A stretch of DNA of 37,816 nt from a virus. Taxonomy: Duplodnaviria; Heunggongvirae; Uroviricota; Caudoviricetes. Location of the stretch: positions 1-37,816 of IMG/VR virus record IMGVR_UViG_2563366922_000008. One strand, given 5' to 3'. Position numbers and translations under genes: made by a program. The notes under the pieces are model-generated. The model had not been told where the DNA came from, did no database searches, and saw nothing but the letters and a program-made list of their open reading frames with translations. This document shows positions 1 through 23,601 of the stretch, piece after piece. Positions within the stretch are counted from its first letter, which is position 1. Every line of letters begins with the position of its first letter.

Positions 1-117
1 ATGATTCTGAACCAGCCTGGTGCACGGCTGGGACGGAAGTCGCTGTCGTTCTCAAAATCGGTGGAGCTGCATGACAAAGTCATCGGGCATTATCTGAATA
101 TAAAACACTATCAGTAA
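1..117 (+). CDS. Possible 3' end of a gene truncated by the window edge (38 codons then TAA)
   Basis: Open frame from position 1 to stop at 115-117, convergent with the minus-strand gene ending at 111; no recognisable motif, could be non-coding. Confidence 0.2.
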
Positions 118-317
118 GTTGGAGTCATTACCGACAATGCGCAGGAATCACGAAACTCGTTCAGATCAGGCTTATTACCATCGACTTTAACGGCAGTATT
201 TGGCTTAAAATAAAAACCAGCGCCCCACCCGTTACCGCGCACCTCAATAATGGCAATGCTGTTAATTCCTTTAACCTCTCCACCGTCAAATTTGAAAGCA
301 CCGCTTTCTGTTTTCAT
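111..317 (-). CDS. Hypothetical 68-aa protein downstream of tailspike
   Basis: [20 protein letters not shown]...; ATG at 317 sits 9 nt after GGAGA and 1 nt after the stop of the upstream 61-aa gene (translational coupling); longer alternative starts at 326/344/356 exist. Confidence 0.4.
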
Positions 318-318
318 T

Positions 319-504
319 TTAATCATTCTCCGTAACAGGTTCATTGTGAGCAGCATTTAGTACTCGCTGGAGTGGCTGGTCATTTTCGCGATCTAATTCA
401 GCCTGTAATGCATTCATTGAAGAATTAAAAGCAGGAACTTCATGACCGCTAAGATTTACGCGAAGCATAAACTGCATGATATTTTGAATAGTTTGCTTAT
501 CCAT
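319..504 (-). CDS. Hypothetical 61-aa protein immediately downstream of tailspike
   Basis: ORF MDKQTIQNIMQFMLRVNLSGHEVP...; ATG at 504 preceded by AGGA; starts 12 nt after tailspike stop. Confidence 0.4.
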   Translation of the reverse strand: MDKQTIQNIMQFMLRVNLSGHEVPAFNSSMNALQAELDRENDQPLQRVLNAAHNEPVTEND

Positions 505-516
505 TTTATTGTCCTG

Positions 517-1953
517 TTAAGTTAAACCAATTAATCCATGCCCGGTTGAAGCATGTAAGTCCTGAATTAATGCTGCAACTACCTTTGCTAAATCTTCGTG
601 AGTTATTGTTCCAGAGTTAAATGCTGCTCGGGATACGGTGCCGGTTGGCGATCCCCATCCCGTCCTCCTCTCTGAAATAACTTGATTGCCATTAAGTCGT
701 ATTCTTAAGTTGTTGAAGTTAGCCCAGTTCTCAGCCCTGTTGAAACTCAAATGTGTTGTATTTGCCGGGCCCGTTCCTACCGTAATTCGTTGATTGTCGC
801 CCATCAAAATTGCGCAGTTGTTTGAAAATCTAGCTTCAGAAAATGAAATTCCACTCCTAAAATAATTTGTTCTAAATCTAATGCCGTTTGCAGCTCCAGA
901 TGATAGAGATCCCTCAAGTCTGATGTATTCGCCATTACCTACCTCGGTTAGTTCCTCTGTTGGAGTGGAAATAGAATTACCTCTAAACAACATTCCTGTC
1001 CAGATATAACCATTTGGAGCTTCACTCCCTCTTCCGATGGTAATCATCTGTGTTACTGGATTGCTTTTATCCTGAGTTACACATACCAACCCTCTTACAG
1101 ATCCTTGCAGTGCATTCTCCATCCATCCTTTATCGGGACCTCGATTATTCAGATTAAATTCATGTGCAATAGTGCTAATCGCTCCATTCTGCACTGCATC
1201 TCCTAATACTGCACCATATGACCACCCCCCCCATGTTTCGGCTTGCGGATTTCTTGATTCTCCACGCATGTGGTGACCAATTGAATGCCCATTCCCTCCC
1301 TCATGCTTAGCAACACTTGTAGTTGTGCATGTATATGCACTTCCTGACACCTTGCGCAAAGAGTTATAAATTACCCCCTGATCCCATCGTTTGATGCCGT
1401 CATCCCTAGTTGCAGAACTAATTTTTTCCAGCCAAATAATGGGATCTGGAATTGGTGTTTCTGGTATGGAGAATCTCTGTCGTGTAGCATTTTTATATAT
1501 GATAGTTTCATTGTTATAAATATTGTCACCAGCTGCATCTGAACCAGTCCATCCTGAGCCAGCATAAAAATTCTTAAGTCCATCACCAGACTGTCCAGTC
1601 AAAACTACTCTTAACTGATCCGGGTCATACTTCAGCACATTTGGGAATTTGAACTGCTGTGCACCATACGCATCATAAACAGCCATAGAATGGCCTTGCT
1701 CAGTTACGAATTTGGCAATCTGTCCGTTATATACAGGGTAACCAGCGGCGTTAATGATGATTGGTTGCGAAACGGGAACATGAGAGCCGTCTTCGTTCTC
1801 TACATAAACCTGAATCTGGTTTTCAGGATTTACTGGGTCAGTGTCAATTTTACCGATATAAATCTTTCCATTAGCTACGGCTTTAAAAGAACGAGCCATA
1901 GTGAAGAGTTGCGAAGGCATGCTGACTACAACATTGGCTGTAATGTCTGTCAT
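517..1953 (-). CDS. Tailspike / tail fiber protein with P22 gp9-type N-terminal head-binding domain and a divergent receptor-binding region
   Basis: 478-aa ORF; N-terminus [11 protein letters not shown]...[33 protein letters not shown]...NVLKYDPDQ matches the P22 tailspike head-binding domain as I recall it; rest unlike the P22 endorhamnosidase; GGAG 8 nt upstream of ATG. Confidence 0.8.
1225..1232 (-). repeat. Homopolymeric G8 tract (C8 on plus strand) inside tailspike coding sequence
   Basis: Plus strand ...accaCCCCCCCCatg...; encodes W-G-G-W (tgg ggg ggg tgg) in the tailspike frame. Confidence 0.9.
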
Positions 1954-2021
1954 TTAATTTGCTCCAGATACAAGGAATCGCCGCAGCATTGCCACAGTGA
2001 TGCATTATTAATCAAACAAAG

Positions 2022-2036
2022 AGACCACTGTGGTCT
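2022..2036. promoter_or_regulatory. 15-bp palindrome AGACCACTGTGGTCT in mnt-tailspike intergenic region; candidate Mnt operator
   Basis: Perfect 7-bp inverted arms around a central T, about 65 bp upstream of mnt; resembles the symmetric P22 mnt operator in style (recalled, not verified). Confidence 0.35.
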
Positions 2037-2099
2037 TATTGAGGATGCAACCAGCAGATAATAAGATGCCGATCCACTCACAAAAGCGAGGCATCAAGA

Positions 2100-2351
2100 A
2101 TGGGAAGAGATGACCCGCAATTTAATCTGCGGCTACCTTACGAATTAAAGGAAAAACTAAAACAGCGAGCCAAATCCAATGGCCGCTCTCTTAATTCAGA
2201 ATTAGTTCAGATAGTTACTGATGCTGTATCAAAGCCATCCAAAATTTCAGGCTATCGAGACGATGCGGAACGCATCGCTGATGAGCAGTCCGAACTTGTT
2301 AAGAAGATGGTGTTTGATACGCTGAAGGATTTGTACAAAAAACCCACCTGA
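2100..2351 (+). CDS. mnt: Mnt repressor (ribbon-helix-helix, P22 immI-type)
   Basis: 83-aa ORF MGRDDPQFNLRLPYELKEKLKQRAKSNGRSLNSELVQIVTDAVSKPS...ADEQSELVKKMVFDTLKDLYKK, matching P22 Mnt in length and sequence as recalled. Confidence 0.85.
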   Translation: MGRDDPQFNLRLPYELKEKLKQRAKSNGRSLNSELVQIVTDAVSKPSKISGYRDDAERIADEQSELVKKMVFDTLKDLYKKPT

Positions 2352-2367
2352 CGGTGGGTTAATTTTT
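2341..2367 (+). terminator. Rho-independent terminator-like hairpin at mnt 3' end
   Basis: aacccacc-tgac-ggtgggtt followed by aattttt; mnt stop codon lies in the loop. Confidence 0.5.
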
Positions 2368-2450
2368 GCATTTACCTGGGCCATATTGACTACTTATAAA
2401 ATGAGATCAATATTTAATCGCCCAATAACGGGTGTATGTTGAGGTATATC

Positions 2451-2630
2451 ATGGCGAAAAAACCAGGTGAAAACACAGGAAAAAACGGCGGAATATACCA
2501 AGAAGTTGGCCCGCGCGGCGGTAAGAAAGACAATTTTGCCACCGTCAAGGACAACGAAAGGCTTCCACCAACAACAAAGCCAGGTCATGGCTGGGTATTA
2601 GATAAGCGAACTCCAGACAGCAAAAAGTAA
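2451..2630 (+). CDS. Hypothetical small basic Gly/Lys-rich protein (59 aa)
   Basis: ATG at 2451 with GAGGT 5 nt upstream; MAKKPGENTGKNGGIYQEVGPRGGKKDNFATVKDNERLPPTTKPGHGWVLDKRTPDSKK; followed by a terminator hairpin; table ORF starts at an upstream TTG. Confidence 0.45.
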   Translation: MAKKPGENTGKNGGIYQEVGPRGGKKDNFATVKDNERLPPTTKPGHGWVLDKRTPDSKK

Positions 2631-2636
2631 TAATCA

Positions 2637-2658
2637 AGCCGGATCACTCCGGCTTTTT
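2637..2658 (+). terminator. Rho-independent terminator (aagccgga-tcact-ccggctt + TTTTT) between convergent genes
   Basis: Perfect 7-bp stem with T5 run on plus strand directly after the 2451-2630 ORF; stop codon of the minus-strand gene lies inside the hairpin. Confidence 0.5.
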
Positions 2659-3009
2659 GATATGTCGCTCGCAGAACTCAACAAGCCTGCTCATTAAGTA
2701 GCAGTAAGTCTCGTTGGCTCTTCCTGGTTCAACATCAACACCGACCCTTGAGCAGATATCGAATGCCATGTGAGCGCACTCATGGGCAATAGTAGATAGT
2801 TTGCCATTGAACACGCCTATCACATGCAAAACACCATTCTCGCTACTCATTGTATGAGACGCTCCGTTGGCGTCCGAGTCATGCACGTCAACGCCAAGTT
2901 TTTGATGCAGGCGTTGCCATTCTGGAAAGTCTCTACAAAACACAATTGTACCGCTCTCAAAGAGCGGTACTAGCATCTTTGGTACGTTTCCAATGTTAAC
3001 TTTTTTCAT
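2644..3009 (-). CDS. Hypothetical 121-aa protein with HExxH motif (possible small zinc-metallopeptidase-like protein)
   Basis: ORF MKKVNIGNVPKMLVPLFESG...STIAHECAHMAFDICSRVG...; ATG at 3009 with AGGA 5 nt upstream; HECAH is a candidate zincin motif; no family assigned. Confidence 0.5.
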   Translation of the reverse strand: MKKVNIGNVPKMLVPLFESGTIVFCRDFPEWQRLHQKLGVDVHDSDANGASHTMSSENGVLHVIGVFNGKLSTIAHECAHMAFDICSRVGVDVEPGRANETYCYLMSRLVEFCERHIKKPE

Positions 3010-3043
3010 GGTATCCTGCGCAAAACTAAGGAGAGTTAATTAT

Positions 3044-3529
3044 ATGAAAAAATCACTGTTAATTATCCCGCTTCTGCTGGCTGGGTGCGCAAAAGTAAGC
3101 GACTATCAGGCAAGTTGCGAGCAACGCTATCCAAAGCTTAGCGATATGGCTAATTGCCTTGATGCCAGCTTGAAGAACGACTCTCGCATGGCATCAGCAC
3201 CAACACCTAAGCTGTATGTCCTTGCTGCGAAGATGCTCGGGCAAGGTGTCGATGAAGGCAAGATAAGTGACACACAGGCAAGACTTGAACTTCAGAATCT
3301 TTATGTTCAATTACAAAGCCAAGAACAAGCCCAACAAATAGCGCAAAGCCAAGCATTCCAGCAGGCTTTATTGAATTATCAGGCTGTAAACACAATGCAA
3401 GCGATCGAGCAAAAAGCGCGCCAGCCTGTTATAACTCAACCTTACCCAACACGCGTTGACACATATACAAACTGCAATTCAGGATTTGGAAACACGGTAA
3501 CATGCAACAGTAGCAGTAATATCAGGTAG
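3044..3529 (+). CDS. Putative lipoprotein (161 aa) with Gln-rich helical region, in the P22 sieA slot
   Basis: ATG at 3044 with AAGGAGAG upstream; N-terminus MKKSLLIIPLLLAGCAK has signal peptide plus lipobox LAGC; Q-rich middle (QLQSQEQAQQIAQSQAFQQALLNYQ); Cys-containing C-terminus. Confidence 0.6.
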   Translation: MKKSLLIIPLLLAGCAKVSDYQASCEQRYPKLSDMANCLDASLKNDSRMASAPTPKLYVLAAKMLGQGVDEGKISDTQARLELQNLYVQLQSQEQAQQIAQSQAFQQALLNYQAVNTMQAIEQKARQPVITQPYPTRVDTYTNCNSGFGNTVTCNSSSNIR

Positions 3530-3543
3530 TTATATCTTATCTT

Positions 3544-5391
3544 TTATTGCTGTTCTGCTGTAATTTGGCTTGAAAGTATAGGGCGTATCGCATTTGCAGC
3601 ATTATTTAGCGCTCTTTCATAGGCTGGCGTTCCTGCTTTGGTGTTTGCCAAACGTAAGAGAGCATTCCTTGCTGCTTTGGACTCATACAAGCGCATCATT
3701 GCACCGAAACCAGCCTCAAGCCCCATTGATACGCCAAGAGTCGCAGTTGCGCCAATCGTCCTTATCCTGTTGGCTTGCGATTGCCCCGTCTGAGTTACTA
3801 CATTTGCGGTGTCTGACCTTGCTGTTTGCTGTAGAACTTCATGAAGAGCATCAAGCTCTTTCATGTGCTTTCCAGAAAAAATAGTGTTGTAAATTTCACC
3901 GCCTGACTGAGATTTCAGCTTATTAACTTCAGTGATGAACTTGGCTGGAGAGTCACCGGATTTTTCCGCTATTTTGCTGACGTAAGCTGCACGCATAGCA
4001 TCTTTCCCTTTATCATCCAATGCGCTCCAGATTCGTTTCACGTCAGATGGTTTTCTGCTTAATACAACGGTATTTATAAGTTCAGGACTGGCTTCACTGC
4101 TTGCCTTGTTGAGCTTGTTAGCAATGTTTTTATTAAGCACCTTATTATAAACGTTTGCATAATCGGAATTTGCTTTAAGGTATTTTGCTGCGTCTGATGC
4201 ACCGAGGTTTTTAGCAACTGCGTTACGAAGGTCTTTTGACATTGCATTCTCTACCATATTGGTAGCTGCTTTTGCCTGGTTGGGGAAGACCATAGCATCT
4301 CCCTGAACATTAGATCTAAATGCTGTTCTGTGCTGACGCAAGAGATCAAACGTAACATCCAAATCAGTTGCAGGGTTTGCTAATTCTTCACGTAGGTTAC
4401 GCAAGGATGTAAGCAGGCTTTGATTGGCAGATGTCCCAAGCCGTTCCTGTCTTGCGATCGCTGTATTCAGAGCATTCATGGTATTTGTGGTATCAACTGA
4501 GGCATTACCCATTTTATTGGTGACGTCATTGATAACAGCGCCATCGGCATCCTTCCGCCCCCTTAACGTGGTGGTCAGAGATTTCACCACATCATCAGGG
4601 TTGTACTCACCAAAACGGTCAAAATAATTACTTACCAGCTTACTACGCGTTGCATATTGCTCAGCTCGCTTTGAGCCTGTCCCGAGCAAAGCCCCCTCGG
4701 CATCCTGAGTAAGGCCACGAGTGAAAGCATTTTTCGGTGGGATGACATCAGATGTCATTGGCGTCACACCCATTGATTCTGAGGTGGCAATTTTTTTCGC
4801 TACTTCTGGCGCGATATCGCCTTTTATAGCCGTTATTCCACGCCCTATTCCCTTTGCTGCTGCGGAAAGAACACCCTGAGCGGCAAGGTTAACTCCGGCA
4901 TTTATGGCTGCATTTTGCGCGAAATCACCTTTCTGGTTTGCGGCTTCTGCCAGTGATCCAATAGCCATGCTTCCTGCCGTTCCAACTCCTGGAACTAAAT
5001 ACCCGCCAATTGTTTCTCCAGCTTGCGCATAAGGGTCTGTCGGTCGATCGACAGGGCGATAAACATCATCCAAAACCTTGGGGCCACCAAGCCCCTGGCT
5101 GATTGCATTAATCAGACTTGCGCCACCCTGCAATACGTCAAATGGTATGTTTACCAGACCACGACCAGCCTGTTCTGCAATTTGCCCTGCACTTTGAGCA
5201 CCTGTGAGCCAATCGCCAGCTTGTTGCATCAATGATGGTTCTTCACGTGCTGGTTCATTATTGGCCTGATTAACTGTTTGTTGCTGAACAGCCTGACCAG
5301 CAAAATACTCATCAATGGCGGTGCCAATATCTTCCGTGCTCGTACCATCAGGGAAGGTAAATGTCTTACCGTTTGCAGTTACTTTCATCAT
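3544..5391 (-). CDS. Ejection (injection) protein, P22 gp16-like
   Basis: 615-aa [36 protein letters not shown]...; position and size as P22 gene 16; start ATG overlaps gp20 stop. Confidence 0.85.
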
Positions 5392-6860
5392 TCCACCGTA
5401 AATTGAATGCCTGATTTTGAGGTATATGATCCGGATTGACTCTGCTGCTGTTGGGTATTTGCCGGTTGTTGGCTATTGCTCTGTTGTTGACTATTTGCAG
5501 CACTTGAAACCACCAAAGCATCATAAACGCGACCAGACTGACCACGTAATGAGTTATATTGGCCCTGCATTTTTCGCATTTTTGTTTCAGTAGCATCCTT
5601 GGAATCACCGGGCTGAGGCAGGTACATTTTGGAATACTCCTGCATCTCTGGCAGAGTAATTGCTGCACCTGTTTCTGGGCGCAAAATTGCATACAAGGCG
5701 TCTCTCGCATTTACCATATATTGCTGCTCCGCTGGTGATAGGCTTAAATTTGCAATAGTCCCATCACCAAGAGAGCGATTTATTAATGCAACTCGCTTAG
5801 GGTCAATGCTTTTACTAAGCTGATTCATTGAGTCCATTGAATCTTTTAATCGCAAAGCAAATCCTGCCGCCTTCTTGGAACCCTCATTAGCCTTATCTAT
5901 GATGCTTTGCGCTTGTGGCAAGCTAATTGGTTTAATGCCATCACCAGATATAGGTTGGTTTAGTTTTCCGGCTTCCTCGCTGCCATCGGTGTAATACTTA
6001 GTTACCGAGCCATCAGGATTGGTTTCAACCTTAAGTAATTTCTTAGCATTGGGATTAATTCCCGCCGCTGCCGCAAATGCCGCTGCACCATCGGGATCCG
6101 CCTTTAACATTTGCGCGTACTGATTATAATTCTGCATTGCAGCTGTTGGTGCATATGCTGACGTTAACGCATTTGCTCGGCTAATATCCTGCCCTCTCGC
6201 CTGAAGCGCCTCTCCAGCCTGATTGCTGCGGATTGTCTCTGCCAGCCTTCCTCGGTCAATTTCACGACCAGCCATCTTGTCCTGAACATTGAAGTAATCA
6301 ATCGGACCAAGAGCAGCCATTCCAAGGTGATCAACAAACTCACCAAATCCTGAAGGATTCTGCTGATACATCTGAGCAACGTTATTAGGGTCAACACCGA
6401 CGAGCGCCAGCTCATTGGCGTTGTTTTGCAGCCATGATTGCATTGCTTCTGGAGACGATGACGCAAGGCGTGCGCCAGCCGCTAAGGTGCCGATAGAATT
6501 GCGCTGGTCTTCGTCTGCCCACTTCATACCAGACTGAATCTTCTCTAATTGACCAGGATATTTGGTCATCAGATCTCGAACCTGCTGTCGATCACCGGAC
6601 TGGATGGCTGCCGCATATTCTTTTTGGAATGCAGCATCCGCTTCCTTTTGCTTTGCGGCTTGATATGTTTGAGCGACACTACCAAGTCCATGCAACGCCT
6701 GAAGGCCGATGTTATTGCGATCTGACCGCTCCATTTCGTTGTTCTGGCGAATATAGGCCAACGCCTCACTTACATCACTTGCCTTTGGCGCATTTGAGTT
6801 TTGCCCACCGATACCAGCAAGAAAACCGCCTGAGTTGATTCCTTGTTGCCAAGTAGCCAT
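5388..6860 (-). CDS. Ejection protein, P22 gp20-like
   Basis: 490-aa ORF between gp7 and gp16 homologues; AAGGTGGG RBS upstream of ATG. Confidence 0.85.
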
Positions 6861-7998: not shown

Positions 7999-8951
7999 CA
8001 CTGCTCCGCAATGATTTTGATGGTTGTGGCAGTAAACGCCGCACCATTTGACTGAATGGTTAACGTGCTGCCATTTGTGGCAAGAAAGCCGTCTTTATCC
8101 ACGCTGAAGAACGTAGCTAACAGGATGTTGTCGGTTGTTGTCGCCGCATTACGACTGCTAACCAACGTATCAGGAACAGAACCGGAAAAAGTTAGCTGCA
8201 TTGACCTGTTGGCGGTTCCACTGGGCCACGTCCCGACAATTGATAGCTTGAAGAACAATGTTTTGTTCTCGTTGAACACAACCATCTTGTTGTTAACGGT
8301 GTCGAAGAATGGTGCCAACGTGCCGGATGACGGCGTGAGCGTTTTCAGCAGGCTAACAAGGTTGGTCGGCGCTATCGGGATGGTTACAGATACTCCTGAG
8401 TAAACAACCTCTGATTTCTTGCGCGTGATGGCATACTCAAGCGCAGATATTCTTGTTGAGTGATCACCAACTGTGCTTTGTAGCGTCGAAATACTTCCCT
8501 CTGCCGCTGTGAGCCTGGTATCAAGTGCGTCGATATCGGTTGTATTCTGAGTTATTCGCGCATCATGGTTTGCTAACTCAGATTCATTGGCAGCAATTCG
8601 CGTCTCGTGATCAGCCAGGTCTGTTTCGGCAGCCGTAATCCTTGTTTCATGATCTGCAAGAGTGCTTTCCGCTGCTGCGATTCTATGTTCATGATTGACG
8701 AGAGTTGCTTCAGCAGCAGCAATTCTGGATTCATGGTCTGCAAGGGTGACATCCTGCTCATCATTCTTCACCTGTGCATCATAAGCCCCCTTCCCTGCTT
8801 CGTTGGCCTTGTTAGCCACGTTACCAACATCAGTGCCCTGTGCGATAACGTACAGCAGATATGACTGCGAGAAGATATTGCGTGGAAGGACTGATGTGTC
8901 GAGTCGTGTAGCCTGAATGATTACCGGCTCATTGAGATTCGAATCAGCCAT
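7998..8951 (-). CDS. Tail needle protein, P22 gp26-like N-terminus with extended C-terminal domain
   Basis: 317-aa ORF; N-terminus [43 protein letters not shown] matches P22 gp26 as recalled; central tandem 14-residue repeats; about 85 aa longer than P22 gp26. Confidence 0.8.
8545..8745 (-). repeat. In-frame tandem repeats (about 42 bp units) encoding ADHE(S/T)RI(A/T)AAE.. repeats of the needle coiled coil
   Basis: Four to five consecutive near-identical 14-aa units ([15 protein letters not shown] / [14 protein letters not shown] / [14 protein letters not shown] / [14 protein letters not shown]) visible in translation and DNA; coordinates approximate. Confidence 0.6.
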
Positions 8952-22592: not shown

Positions 22593-22879
22593 GACTTAAT
22601 CTTCCCCTCCTTCAGCAGTATCGCCTGCGTCCTGATCACGCCTTCGAGGTGGTAAAGTCTGGCGTCTTTGTTGTCGAGGTTATGGGTGCGTCGGTCGATT
22701 TCATCGTGACACGCGCTACAAGCCCATGCACCGATCAGGTCGTCAGGCTTCATTCCCGTTCCGCAAATTCCAGCCATCCGGTAATGTGCCAGAACTGTAG
22801 TTTCAGGGTTGCCATTGCATACGCCGTAAATACGTACCTGGCATTCTCTGCCGCGTGCTTCTTTGCGTAGGTTAGCCAT
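22589..22879 (-). CDS. ybcO: YbcO-like (DUF1364) putative nuclease
   Basis: 96-aa ORF MANLRKEARGRECQVRIYGVCNGNPETTVLAHYRMAGICGTGMKPDDLIGAWACSACHDEIDRRTH resembles E. coli DLP12 YbcO as recalled. Confidence 0.7.
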   Translation of the reverse strand: MANLRKEARGRECQVRIYGVCNGNPETTVLAHYRMAGICGTGMKPDDLIGAWACSACHDEIDRRTHNLDNKDARLYHLEGVIRTQAILLKEGKIKS

Positions 22880-23601
22880 TAAGCAGCCTCCCCTGTTACT
22901 TTCAGCATTCCGTTATCGAGCAGCTTTCTGGTCAGCCACTGTTGACCACGCCCGGTGATTTTTGTGGTGAACGATATCTGTATCCCGTGATTTGTGTTGA
23001 TCGCTGTTTCTTTCACTGTGAAATAGCCGCGATCCATATATTCCTGCATTGGCACATTGCGCCGGGAACCTGAAGCAATAAGGATTTTGTGATCGCGCAT
23101 CCACGCAAACAGTTTGTTTGGACCAATTCCAACAACCTTTGCAAAGTTTCCAATCAAAATTCCGCTGGCCTCGCCAACGCGATCGGCAAACTCAACTTTA
23201 GGTGCGGCAATTGCGAGCTGGTTTTCCAGTTGCATTTTCTTCTCAGCAAGATCAGCAGCAAGGCGCAACGCTTCCGGTAGCGTTTTGGGGATATTAACCG
23301 TAGTTTCTTCAAGCTCTCGCCAACGATCAACAAGACGAGCGGTGAATTCCGGCGACAACTGGGCTACAACGACAATACTGTCTCGCTTACCTTGTTCGCC
23401 CTCAAAAACGTAAGCCTCTACGCCACGAAGTAATCCTAAGTTATTGATTTTTTCGAAAACCACCATTGGGGGATTTCGGATCACACCTCGAGCCGCCAGT
23501 CGTTCAATAGATTGTTTCACCTTGTCATGACGACTTCCCACCAACTCAGCGATTTCAATGCTTGTCATTTTGATGGCGTTGCCATTTATTAACTCATTCA
23601 T
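22879..23601 (-). CDS. Phage antirepressor-like protein (Rha-like N-terminus plus KilA-C domain)
   Basis: 240-aa ORF; N-terminus MTSIEIAELVGSRHDKVKQSIERL (Rha/AntA-like), C-terminus ...NFAKVVGIGPNKLFAWMRDHKILI...YFTVKE...ISFTTKITGRGQQWLTRKL typical KilA-C. Confidence 0.75.
   Translation of the reverse strand: MNELINGNAIKMTSIEIAELVGSRHDKVKQSIERLAARGVIRNPPMVVFEKINNLGLLRGVEAYVFEGEQGKRDSIVVVAQLSPEFTARLVDRWRELEETTVNIPKTLPEALRLAADLAEKKMQLENQLAIAAPKVEFADRVGEASGILIGNFAKVVGIGPNKLFAWMRDHKILIASGSRRNVPMQEYMDRGYFTVKETAINTNHGIQISFTTKITGRGQQWLTRKLLDNGMLKVTGEAA

Follow-up and report, generated by a model that had tools for sequence, protein, structure and literature searches.

An orphan mnt gene with its predicted operator and promoter as a probable remnant of the immI region in a P22/HK620-like prophage of Escherichia coli

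The mnt gene standing divergent from the tailspike gene in this prophage, together with its promoter Pmnt and a palindromic operator, is in our reading what is left of an immI region ('ant moron') from which arc, sar, ant, t_ant and the promoter Pant have been lost. The parts that were kept would form an autoregulatory loop and probably serve a further role in trans. For this reading as a whole we estimate a probability of about 0.6. The stretch analysed (hereafter the window, 37,816 nucleotides at its full length) is an E. coli prophage of the P22/HK620-like type. Its best genome match is that of E. coli EF5-18-41 (NZ_CP063492; 99.6% over positions 1–5400), and the element as a whole was found in 112 of the 5,426 complete E. 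coli genomes (~2%). A fragment of an IS1 transposase (window 1–117) adjoins the prophage end beyond the tailspike module, and the matching genome has an IS1 family transposase annotated.

The features of the region, in window coordinates, are the following.

517–1953, minus strand: tailspike gene (478 aa), which closes the late operon and encodes a P22-type head-binding domain (Pfam Head_binding, 3.6e-65, residues 1–113)
1954–2021, no strand assigned: left part of the spacer, with the tailspike leader and ribosome-binding site, homologous to the P22 and HK620 leaders
2022–2036, no strand assigned: predicted O_mnt of the Gln6 class, AGACCAC-T-GTGGTCT, core GACCAC-N-GTGGTC, the positional homologue of the P22 mnt operator
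2039–2067, plus strand: Pmnt homologue, TTGAGG (2039–2044), a 17-bp spacer and TAAGAT (2062–2067)
2044–2072, minus strand: decayed Pant homologue, −35 TCGGCA (2072–2067) and −10 TGCATC (2049–2044), placed by alignment to P22 on the operator centre
2100–2351, plus strand: mnt, encoding an 83-aa Mnt repressor, with a ribbon-helix-helix domain carrying Gln6 and a P22-type C-terminal tetramerisation domain
2341–2360, no strand assigned: bidirectional intrinsic terminator at the end of mnt, the t_mnt homologue, from a terminator scan of both strands

The tailspike ATG is the complement of 1951–1953 and the mnt ATG begins at 2100, leaving a spacer of 146 bp (1954–2099). In this spacer O_mnt lies 69 bp ahead of the tailspike start codon, between that gene and the late operon. 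Judging from P22, ST160 and HK620, the left spacer part (1954–2021) is also the junction from which arc-sar-ant-t_ant is missing. At the other end of mnt, the terminator folds as RNA at −18.1 kcal/mol (z −4.5), and the homologous hairpin is annotated as tMNT in the HK620 record.

Several side observations concern the neighbouring sequences. Behind its P22 head-binding domain, the C-terminal part of the tailspike has no Pfam match, and two small ORFs that follow the tailspike gene on the same strand (319–504 and 111–356) gave no significant family match. The tailspike leader contains a hairpin-prone element, GCATTGCCACAGTGATGC (window 1986–2003), homologous to GCATGGCTACGGTGAATTTT, which occurs in two copies in P22, flanking ~110 bp beside t_ant, and in one copy in HK620, and is annotated as a terminator in phage L. 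In the compared records it was located at 1100–1119 and 1211–1229 (L001), ~1690–1710 (L003) and 736–776 (L217), and it resembles a conserved element of a leader or module boundary. Beyond mnt, a promoter-like TTGACT-17-AATATT (2386–2414) precedes a YjzC-like small ORF (2451–2630), the homologue of P22 orf59a, which terminates at a bidirectional terminator (2636–2655).

A preliminary description of this DNA, made from the letters alone, had taken the ORF at 2100–2351 for a Mnt-type ribbon-helix-helix repressor, and profile and structure matches identify it as such over its full length. The N-terminal ribbon-helix-helix domain is present (Pfam PF03869 Arc, 2.8e-22, residues 3–50; PDB 1mnt, 2.8e-34), as is the C-terminal Mnt tetramerisation domain (Pfam PF11423 Repressor_Mnt, 2.2e-18, residues 53–80; PDB 1qey, 3.1e-12). 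The same protein is annotated as Mnt in the coliphages Gally and vB_EcoP-720R6. The β-strand of P22 Mnt contacts DNA through Arg2, His6, Asn8 and Arg10 (P22 numbering); the window protein keeps Arg2, Asn8 and Arg10 and shows, at mature position 6, a Gln in place of the P22 His. The gene is a mosaic. Codons 1–51 are anciently diverged from P22 (dS saturated, dN 0.27) and codons 52–83 were recently shared with it (dS 0.31, dN 0.04), as was the downstream DNA; these figures compare window 2100–2351 with L001 2501–2752. In the comparison of L217 with L002, phage L and ST160 have the N-terminal domain and the spacer in common and differ in their C-terminal domains.

The perfect 15-bp palindrome reported earlier for the 146-bp spacer was confirmed in both position and sequence: AGACCACTGTGGTCT at 2022–2036 is a perfect 7-N-7 palindrome, AGACCAC-T-GTGGTCT. 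The window contains five perfect 7-N-7 palindromes against 2.3 expected, so that bare palindromes are not remarkable in themselves, and the significance of this one derives from its position and homology. Alignment of the spacer with P22 immI, which the preliminary description had proposed, places the palindrome at the mnt operator of the P22-pbi record, where Pant, Pmnt and the arc operator are annotated as well. Turned to the orientation of the window, the P22 sequence is AGGTCCAC-C-GTGGACCT, followed by TATTGAGAATAT and continuing to the mnt ATG. The operator is directly followed by TATTGAG in both window and P22, its centre lies 10 bp from the first base of the Pmnt −35 in both, and the distance from the centre to the mnt ATG is 71 bp, compared with 66 bp in P22. 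The window half-sites differ from those of P22 at position 5 from the centre (GTGGTC versus GTGGAC) and at position 7. The best half-site of P22 Mnt is GTGGACC, and the effect of position 7 is less than 3-fold (quoted in PMC2726951).

Further copies of the palindrome, which it had been suggested to look for, were not found in the window with up to three mismatches allowed, nor does the window contain any CCAC-N-GTGG besides that at 2022–2036. The proposal that the palindrome is a Mnt operator agrees with its homology to P22 O_mnt, its covariation with Mnt residue 6 and its strong conservation (both detailed below); on this basis it is the predicted cognate operator of a Gln6-class Mnt.

The change at residue 6 covaries with operator position 5: Gln6 goes with the half-site GTGGTC, and His6, as in P22, with GTGGAC. 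We collected loci from IMG/VR, at least 80 in a first set and at least 119 in a second, both samples being redundant. Among the matches listed, the strand MGRDDPQFNLRL was present in 66 loci, and in each of these GACCAC-N-GTGGTC, or a sequence differing from it at one base, stands at a constant distance from mnt; every P22-like MARDDPHFNFRM locus that has an operator carries GGTCCAC-N-GTGGACC. The His6 rule also holds in the E. coli prophages L084, L085, L218 and L219 and in the phages epsilon34 and UPF_BP1, and phage L, ST64T and ST160 combine Gln6 with GACCAC. Pattern scans brought up distant Gln6 repressors with the strand MAR[DN]DPQFNLRM and the same site, in loci that have kept arc and ant (L086, L138, L149 and L228–L231), and the same pairing recurs in L140 (MSREDPQMKIRLP) and L221 (MSREDPQFKLRMP, three sites). 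Altogether, every Gln6-type Mnt examined adjoins a GACCAC-type operator, with the exception of phage N7, whose Gln6-like strand VARNDPQFNVRMP (Gln6, Asn8 and Arg10) goes with TAGCAC-C-GTACTA in the place of the operator; specificity therefore depends on more than residue 6. From the work of Sauer, Susskind and Stormo, residue 6 is reportedly the specificity-determining residue and contacts operator positions 16/17, which we take to be half-site positions 5/6. His6/GTGGAC and Gln6/GTGGTC would make a natural specificity pair for a classic model of DNA recognition by a β-sheet.

Three details of the comparison set are recorded here in their own right. Ahead of the Gln6 repressor MSREDPQFKLRMP of L221, three GGACCAC-N-GTGGTCC sites are crowded into ~90 bp (~8160–8260). 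The Mnt-like protein of Escherichia phage N7 (L207, 688–1009) was probably mis-started in the record, and a GTG start gives VARNDPQFNVRMP. Four loci (L068–L071) encode a His6, P22-type Mnt without a GGTCCAC operator in the 480 nt upstream of mnt that were looked at, with a second RHH gene (MSDRKYKNPQVNLRLP...) directly upstream; they represent a different kind of rearranged immI.

We also asked where Gln6-class operators occur next to an antirepressor gene. All ant-carrying P22-like phages of E. coli and Salmonella that were inspected belong to the His6 class. A search for Gln6-class arc-ant modules in E. coli yielded 74 genomes weakly matching L138, and both of the two checked were His6. Where Gln6-class loci do have ant, they are on IMG/VR contigs with no host assigned, and one of these contigs is 82% identical to Salmonella siphophages. 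SPN3UB and Oslo are related to the L138 backbone; their operator types are unrelated, and they were discarded as carriers of the class. Among species-representative genomes, a protein scan returned nothing confirmed, and a scan with an 18-base pattern returned 8 matches in unrelated MAGs, in keeping with the ~17 expected by chance on a rough estimate; nothing taxonomic was gained from this collection.

Promoters were scored with a rough, approximate sigma-70 matrix against a background of random 157-nt windows. The Pmnt homologue scored 11.98 (background 90th percentile 9.4; P22 Pmnt 14.6), and its predicted start near 2074 puts the operator centre at about −45. The same matrix scan for a leftward promoter in the spacer detected nothing above background: the best candidate scored 5.69, below the background median of 6.86, compared with 16.97 for P22 Pant. 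The Pant homologue, which does not rank among the top leftward candidates, reads TCGGCA/TGCATC versus TTGACA-17-TATATT in P22, and all orphan spacers have it in degenerate form. Gln6-class loci with arc-ant have TTGACA-17-CATYAT at the P22-equivalent position (score 12.8); since Pant is kept there, its decay is specific to loci that have lost the operon. The absence of arc and ant, noted previously from the short distance between mnt and the tailspike gene, was borne out by tblastn searches of the whole window with P22 Arc and Ant, in which nothing came up besides mnt itself, as a cross-match, and the KilAC domain, matched weakly (E=0.09). For the sar RNA there was no Rfam match in 1–6000 at E<=1, and the region that would hold it is absent. 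Of the components of a complete P22-type immI, the window thus has mnt, O_mnt and Pmnt, and it lacks arc, ant, sar and a strong leftward Pant that overlaps Pmnt and starts at the operator. As a separate observation, the block GATGCCGATCCAC (2065–2077), which comes shortly after the Pmnt −10, hardly varies, also in the distant orphans L112, L118 and L158; it includes GATCCAC, one base off the P22-type half-site, and no second half-site accompanies it.

We aligned the 40 unique orphan spacers that had been recovered and calculated per-column figures from 39 of them, omitting the very divergent L140. Across these 39 related spacers no block is better conserved than the half-sites: their 12 bases have a minor-allele fraction of 0.011, and the central operator base varies freely (0.69). 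The corresponding fractions are 0.07–0.08 for the Pmnt hexamers, 0.08 for the right spacer and 0.21 for the left spacer, the most variable part. In the distant orphans L118, L158 and L162 the operator is identical at 12 of 12 bases, with 63–71% identity in the right spacer and 41–46% in the left. The stem of the palindrome is invariant and shows no compensatory changes, apart from six singleton, single-base defects (L012, L024, L033, L041, L053 and L062). Selection is likewise apparent on the protein: between the E. coli and Salmonella types of orphan mnt, dS is ~0.4 and dN/dS 0.08–0.12. Moreover, all 129 Mnt-like ORFs among the matches listed are full length (at least 81 aa), a count that is silent on shorter, truncated copies, as the recovery rule accepted ORFs of at least 60 aa. 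These selection and conservation figures favour a retained function of orphan mnt.

We propose that in a lysogen Pmnt (2039–2067) would transcribe a monocistronic mnt message terminating at 2341–2360, and that Mnt tetramers would bind the operator centred about −45 of this promoter. Their effect in cis would fall on the expression of mnt itself, as an autoregulatory loop of either sign; Pmnt is taken as the cis target because no other recognisable promoter remains next to the operator. In P22, Mnt bound at O_mnt stimulates Pmnt only indirectly, through shut-off of the overlapping Pant. As Pant is gone here, a direct effect of Mnt on Pmnt is an assumption. The tailspike gene would be read from the late operon, with its initiation not under Mnt. 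Mnt, operator and Pmnt probably make up a self-contained autoregulatory loop. Autoregulation alone does not explain a protein kept intact by selection, so that a function in trans is probable; orphan Mnt has probably been kept for it, and the most plausible candidate would be the silencing of same-class operators on incoming DNA. The search for operator sites within the window revealed no trans target for Mnt. For annotation, this reading would make the palindrome O_mnt, 2039–2067 Pmnt and the region an immI remnant rather than a tailspike regulator.

The preliminary description had instead suggested that Mnt gates transcription entering the tailspike gene, which in its wider form would mean that Mnt at the palindrome either represses a Pant-derived promoter by which the tailspike gene is now driven directly or acts as a roadblock to RNA polymerase of the late operon. 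The position of the operator, between the late operon and the tailspike gene and 69 bp before the start codon, fits such a role, and a roadblock on late read-through, which is conceivable, was raised for P22 in general terms by Villafane et al. A gated promoter, however, is hard to find, as Pant is decayed in every orphan spacer, although kept in the Gln6-class arc-ant loci, and the highest leftward score stays under the median of the background. HK620 is viable with only mnt and ant remnants ahead of its tailspike gene, and viable particles are likewise formed by a P22 mnt-ant deletion (PMC11016777); any effect on the tailspike would therefore be modulatory at most, and we hold tailspike control to be unlikely. 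The other target named at that time, the KilAC/Rha-type antirepressor-like gene at 22879–23601, indeed encodes a KilAC (ANT) domain (6.8e-33). Its surroundings argue otherwise. The gene is packed between the NinF and YbcO homologues of the nin region, its start overlapping the stop of the upstream ORF; because of this packing with overlapping start and stop codons we assign it to the operon of the nin region, and its expression presumably comes from the early right operon. No operator-like inverted repeat lies upstream of it, and no operator-like site occurs elsewhere in the window even with three mismatches, which leaves regulation of this gene by Mnt with a negligible likelihood. The segment 22879–23770 (minus strand) shows this KilAC/Rha-type gene amid nin genes.

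The palindrome might alternatively act as RNA, as a hairpin or weak intrinsic terminator on the tailspike strand that has replaced t_ant. The minus-strand terminator scan does list it with the tail CTTTGTTTGA, and it folds at −8.7 kcal/mol; yet the stem is only 6 bp with a fold z of −1.8, Salmonella-type spacers lack a T-rich tail (AGACCACCGTGGTCT then TAATGACGC), the stem is invariant and never compensatory, as expected for a protein site, and the P22 homologue is annotated as an experimentally defined operator. The palindrome was rejected as a rho-independent terminator in the sense of a GC-rich stem-loop with a conserved U-run, and the RNA reading as a whole appears very improbable. A functionless, decaying immI relic is somewhat easier to imagine, considering that arc, ant, sar and Pant are gone, that HK620 demonstrates that complete decay of the region is possible and that a few spacers have the single-base operator defects listed above; for phage L, this possibility was left open by Zaworski et al. 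2020 (PMC8022706). A dN/dS of 0.08–0.12 speaks against it, as do the 129 of 129 full-length Mnt-like ORFs (with truncated copies escaping the 60-aa rule) and an operator intact at 12 of 12 bases in orphans with saturated synonymous sites and flanks only 41–71% identical. We accordingly find mere decay improbable.

Closest to our proposal is the idea that selection acts solely on immunity in trans, with orphan Mnt repressing the GACCAC-class antirepressor promoters of superinfecting phages and the resident operator only setting the level of Mnt. The Gln6 orphan and its operator would then be a selected stand-alone module of 'immunity without antirepressor', shielding its own lysogeny from induction by GACCAC-class phages. 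Action against superinfecting P22 is the classical role of prophage Mnt, the protein is under purifying selection, and suitable targets exist in phage contigs (L086, L138, L149 and L228–L231) that combine a Gln6 Mnt and a GACCAC operator with arc, ant and an intact Pant, the backbone of one being 82% identical to Salmonella siphophages. Against this, no Gln6-class ant phage appeared among the E. coli or Salmonella records inspected, the Gln6-class ant loci being IMG/VR contigs without an assigned host, and immunity in trans by itself leaves the strong conservation of the resident operator unexplained. We therefore entertain this purely trans-acting version as a tentative possibility, and prefer the immI remnant with an autoregulatory loop and a probable role in trans.

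In comparison with P22 immI, the window has a repressor of the same family and architecture (RHH plus tetramerisation domain, 76% identity), the same operator position, CCAC-N-GTGG core and spacing to Pmnt, the same location between gene 16 and the tailspike gene, and a terminator after mnt. It differs in having no arc, sar, ant, t_ant or functional Pant, in the combination of Gln6 with GTGGTC, whereas P22 has His6 with GTGGAC, and in an N-terminal domain that is anciently diverged (dS saturated), in contrast to the recently shared C-terminal 32 codons. Some likeness also exists to P22 Arc, as the Gln6 Mnt strand PQFNLRL has the Gln/Asn/Arg of the Arc strand PQFNLRW. Arc is, however, a protein of 53 aa without the Mnt tetramerisation domain and with a different, 21-bp operator, and the window protein matches it at E ~1e-6, versus 1e-34 for Mnt.

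HK620 is the closest named-phage relative of the stretch overall (96% over the shared parts). In the region between gene 16 and the tailspike gene it has the tailspike leader, the orf59a-like gene and the hkcC gene in common with the window, but of mnt no more than the 3' end remains there, together with tMNT and a t_ant remnant, and operator, Pmnt and Mnt are lacking.

Counterparts with the same layout are the Mnt-only 'ant morons' of the Salmonella phages L, ST64T, ST104, ST160 and SE1, in which mnt likewise adjoins the tailspike gene and diverges from it, with a Gln6 N-terminal domain, a GACCAC-N-GTGGTC operator and Pmnt. The ST160-type Mnt is 92% identical to that of the window. Unlike the window with its 146 nt, these phages have a spacer of 141 nt, with an 11-nt indel at the junction, and their neighbouring moron genes differ; in phage L and ST64T, Mnt additionally has a different C-terminal domain, which brings overall identity down to 70%. 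Earlier papers describe the mnt-only layout as such in ST64T, ST104 and Para1 (Villafane 2008) and in phage L (Zaworski et al. 2020, PMC8022706). In the literature searched we found no description of the Gln6/GACCAC operator class, of the loss of Pant in orphans or of the evidence for selection; each adds an increment to a system that is well known. Zaworski et al. 2020 (PMC8022706) asked of phage L whether its solitary mnt has acquired a new role or is a relic, and on this question the figures for selection and conservation favour a retained function.
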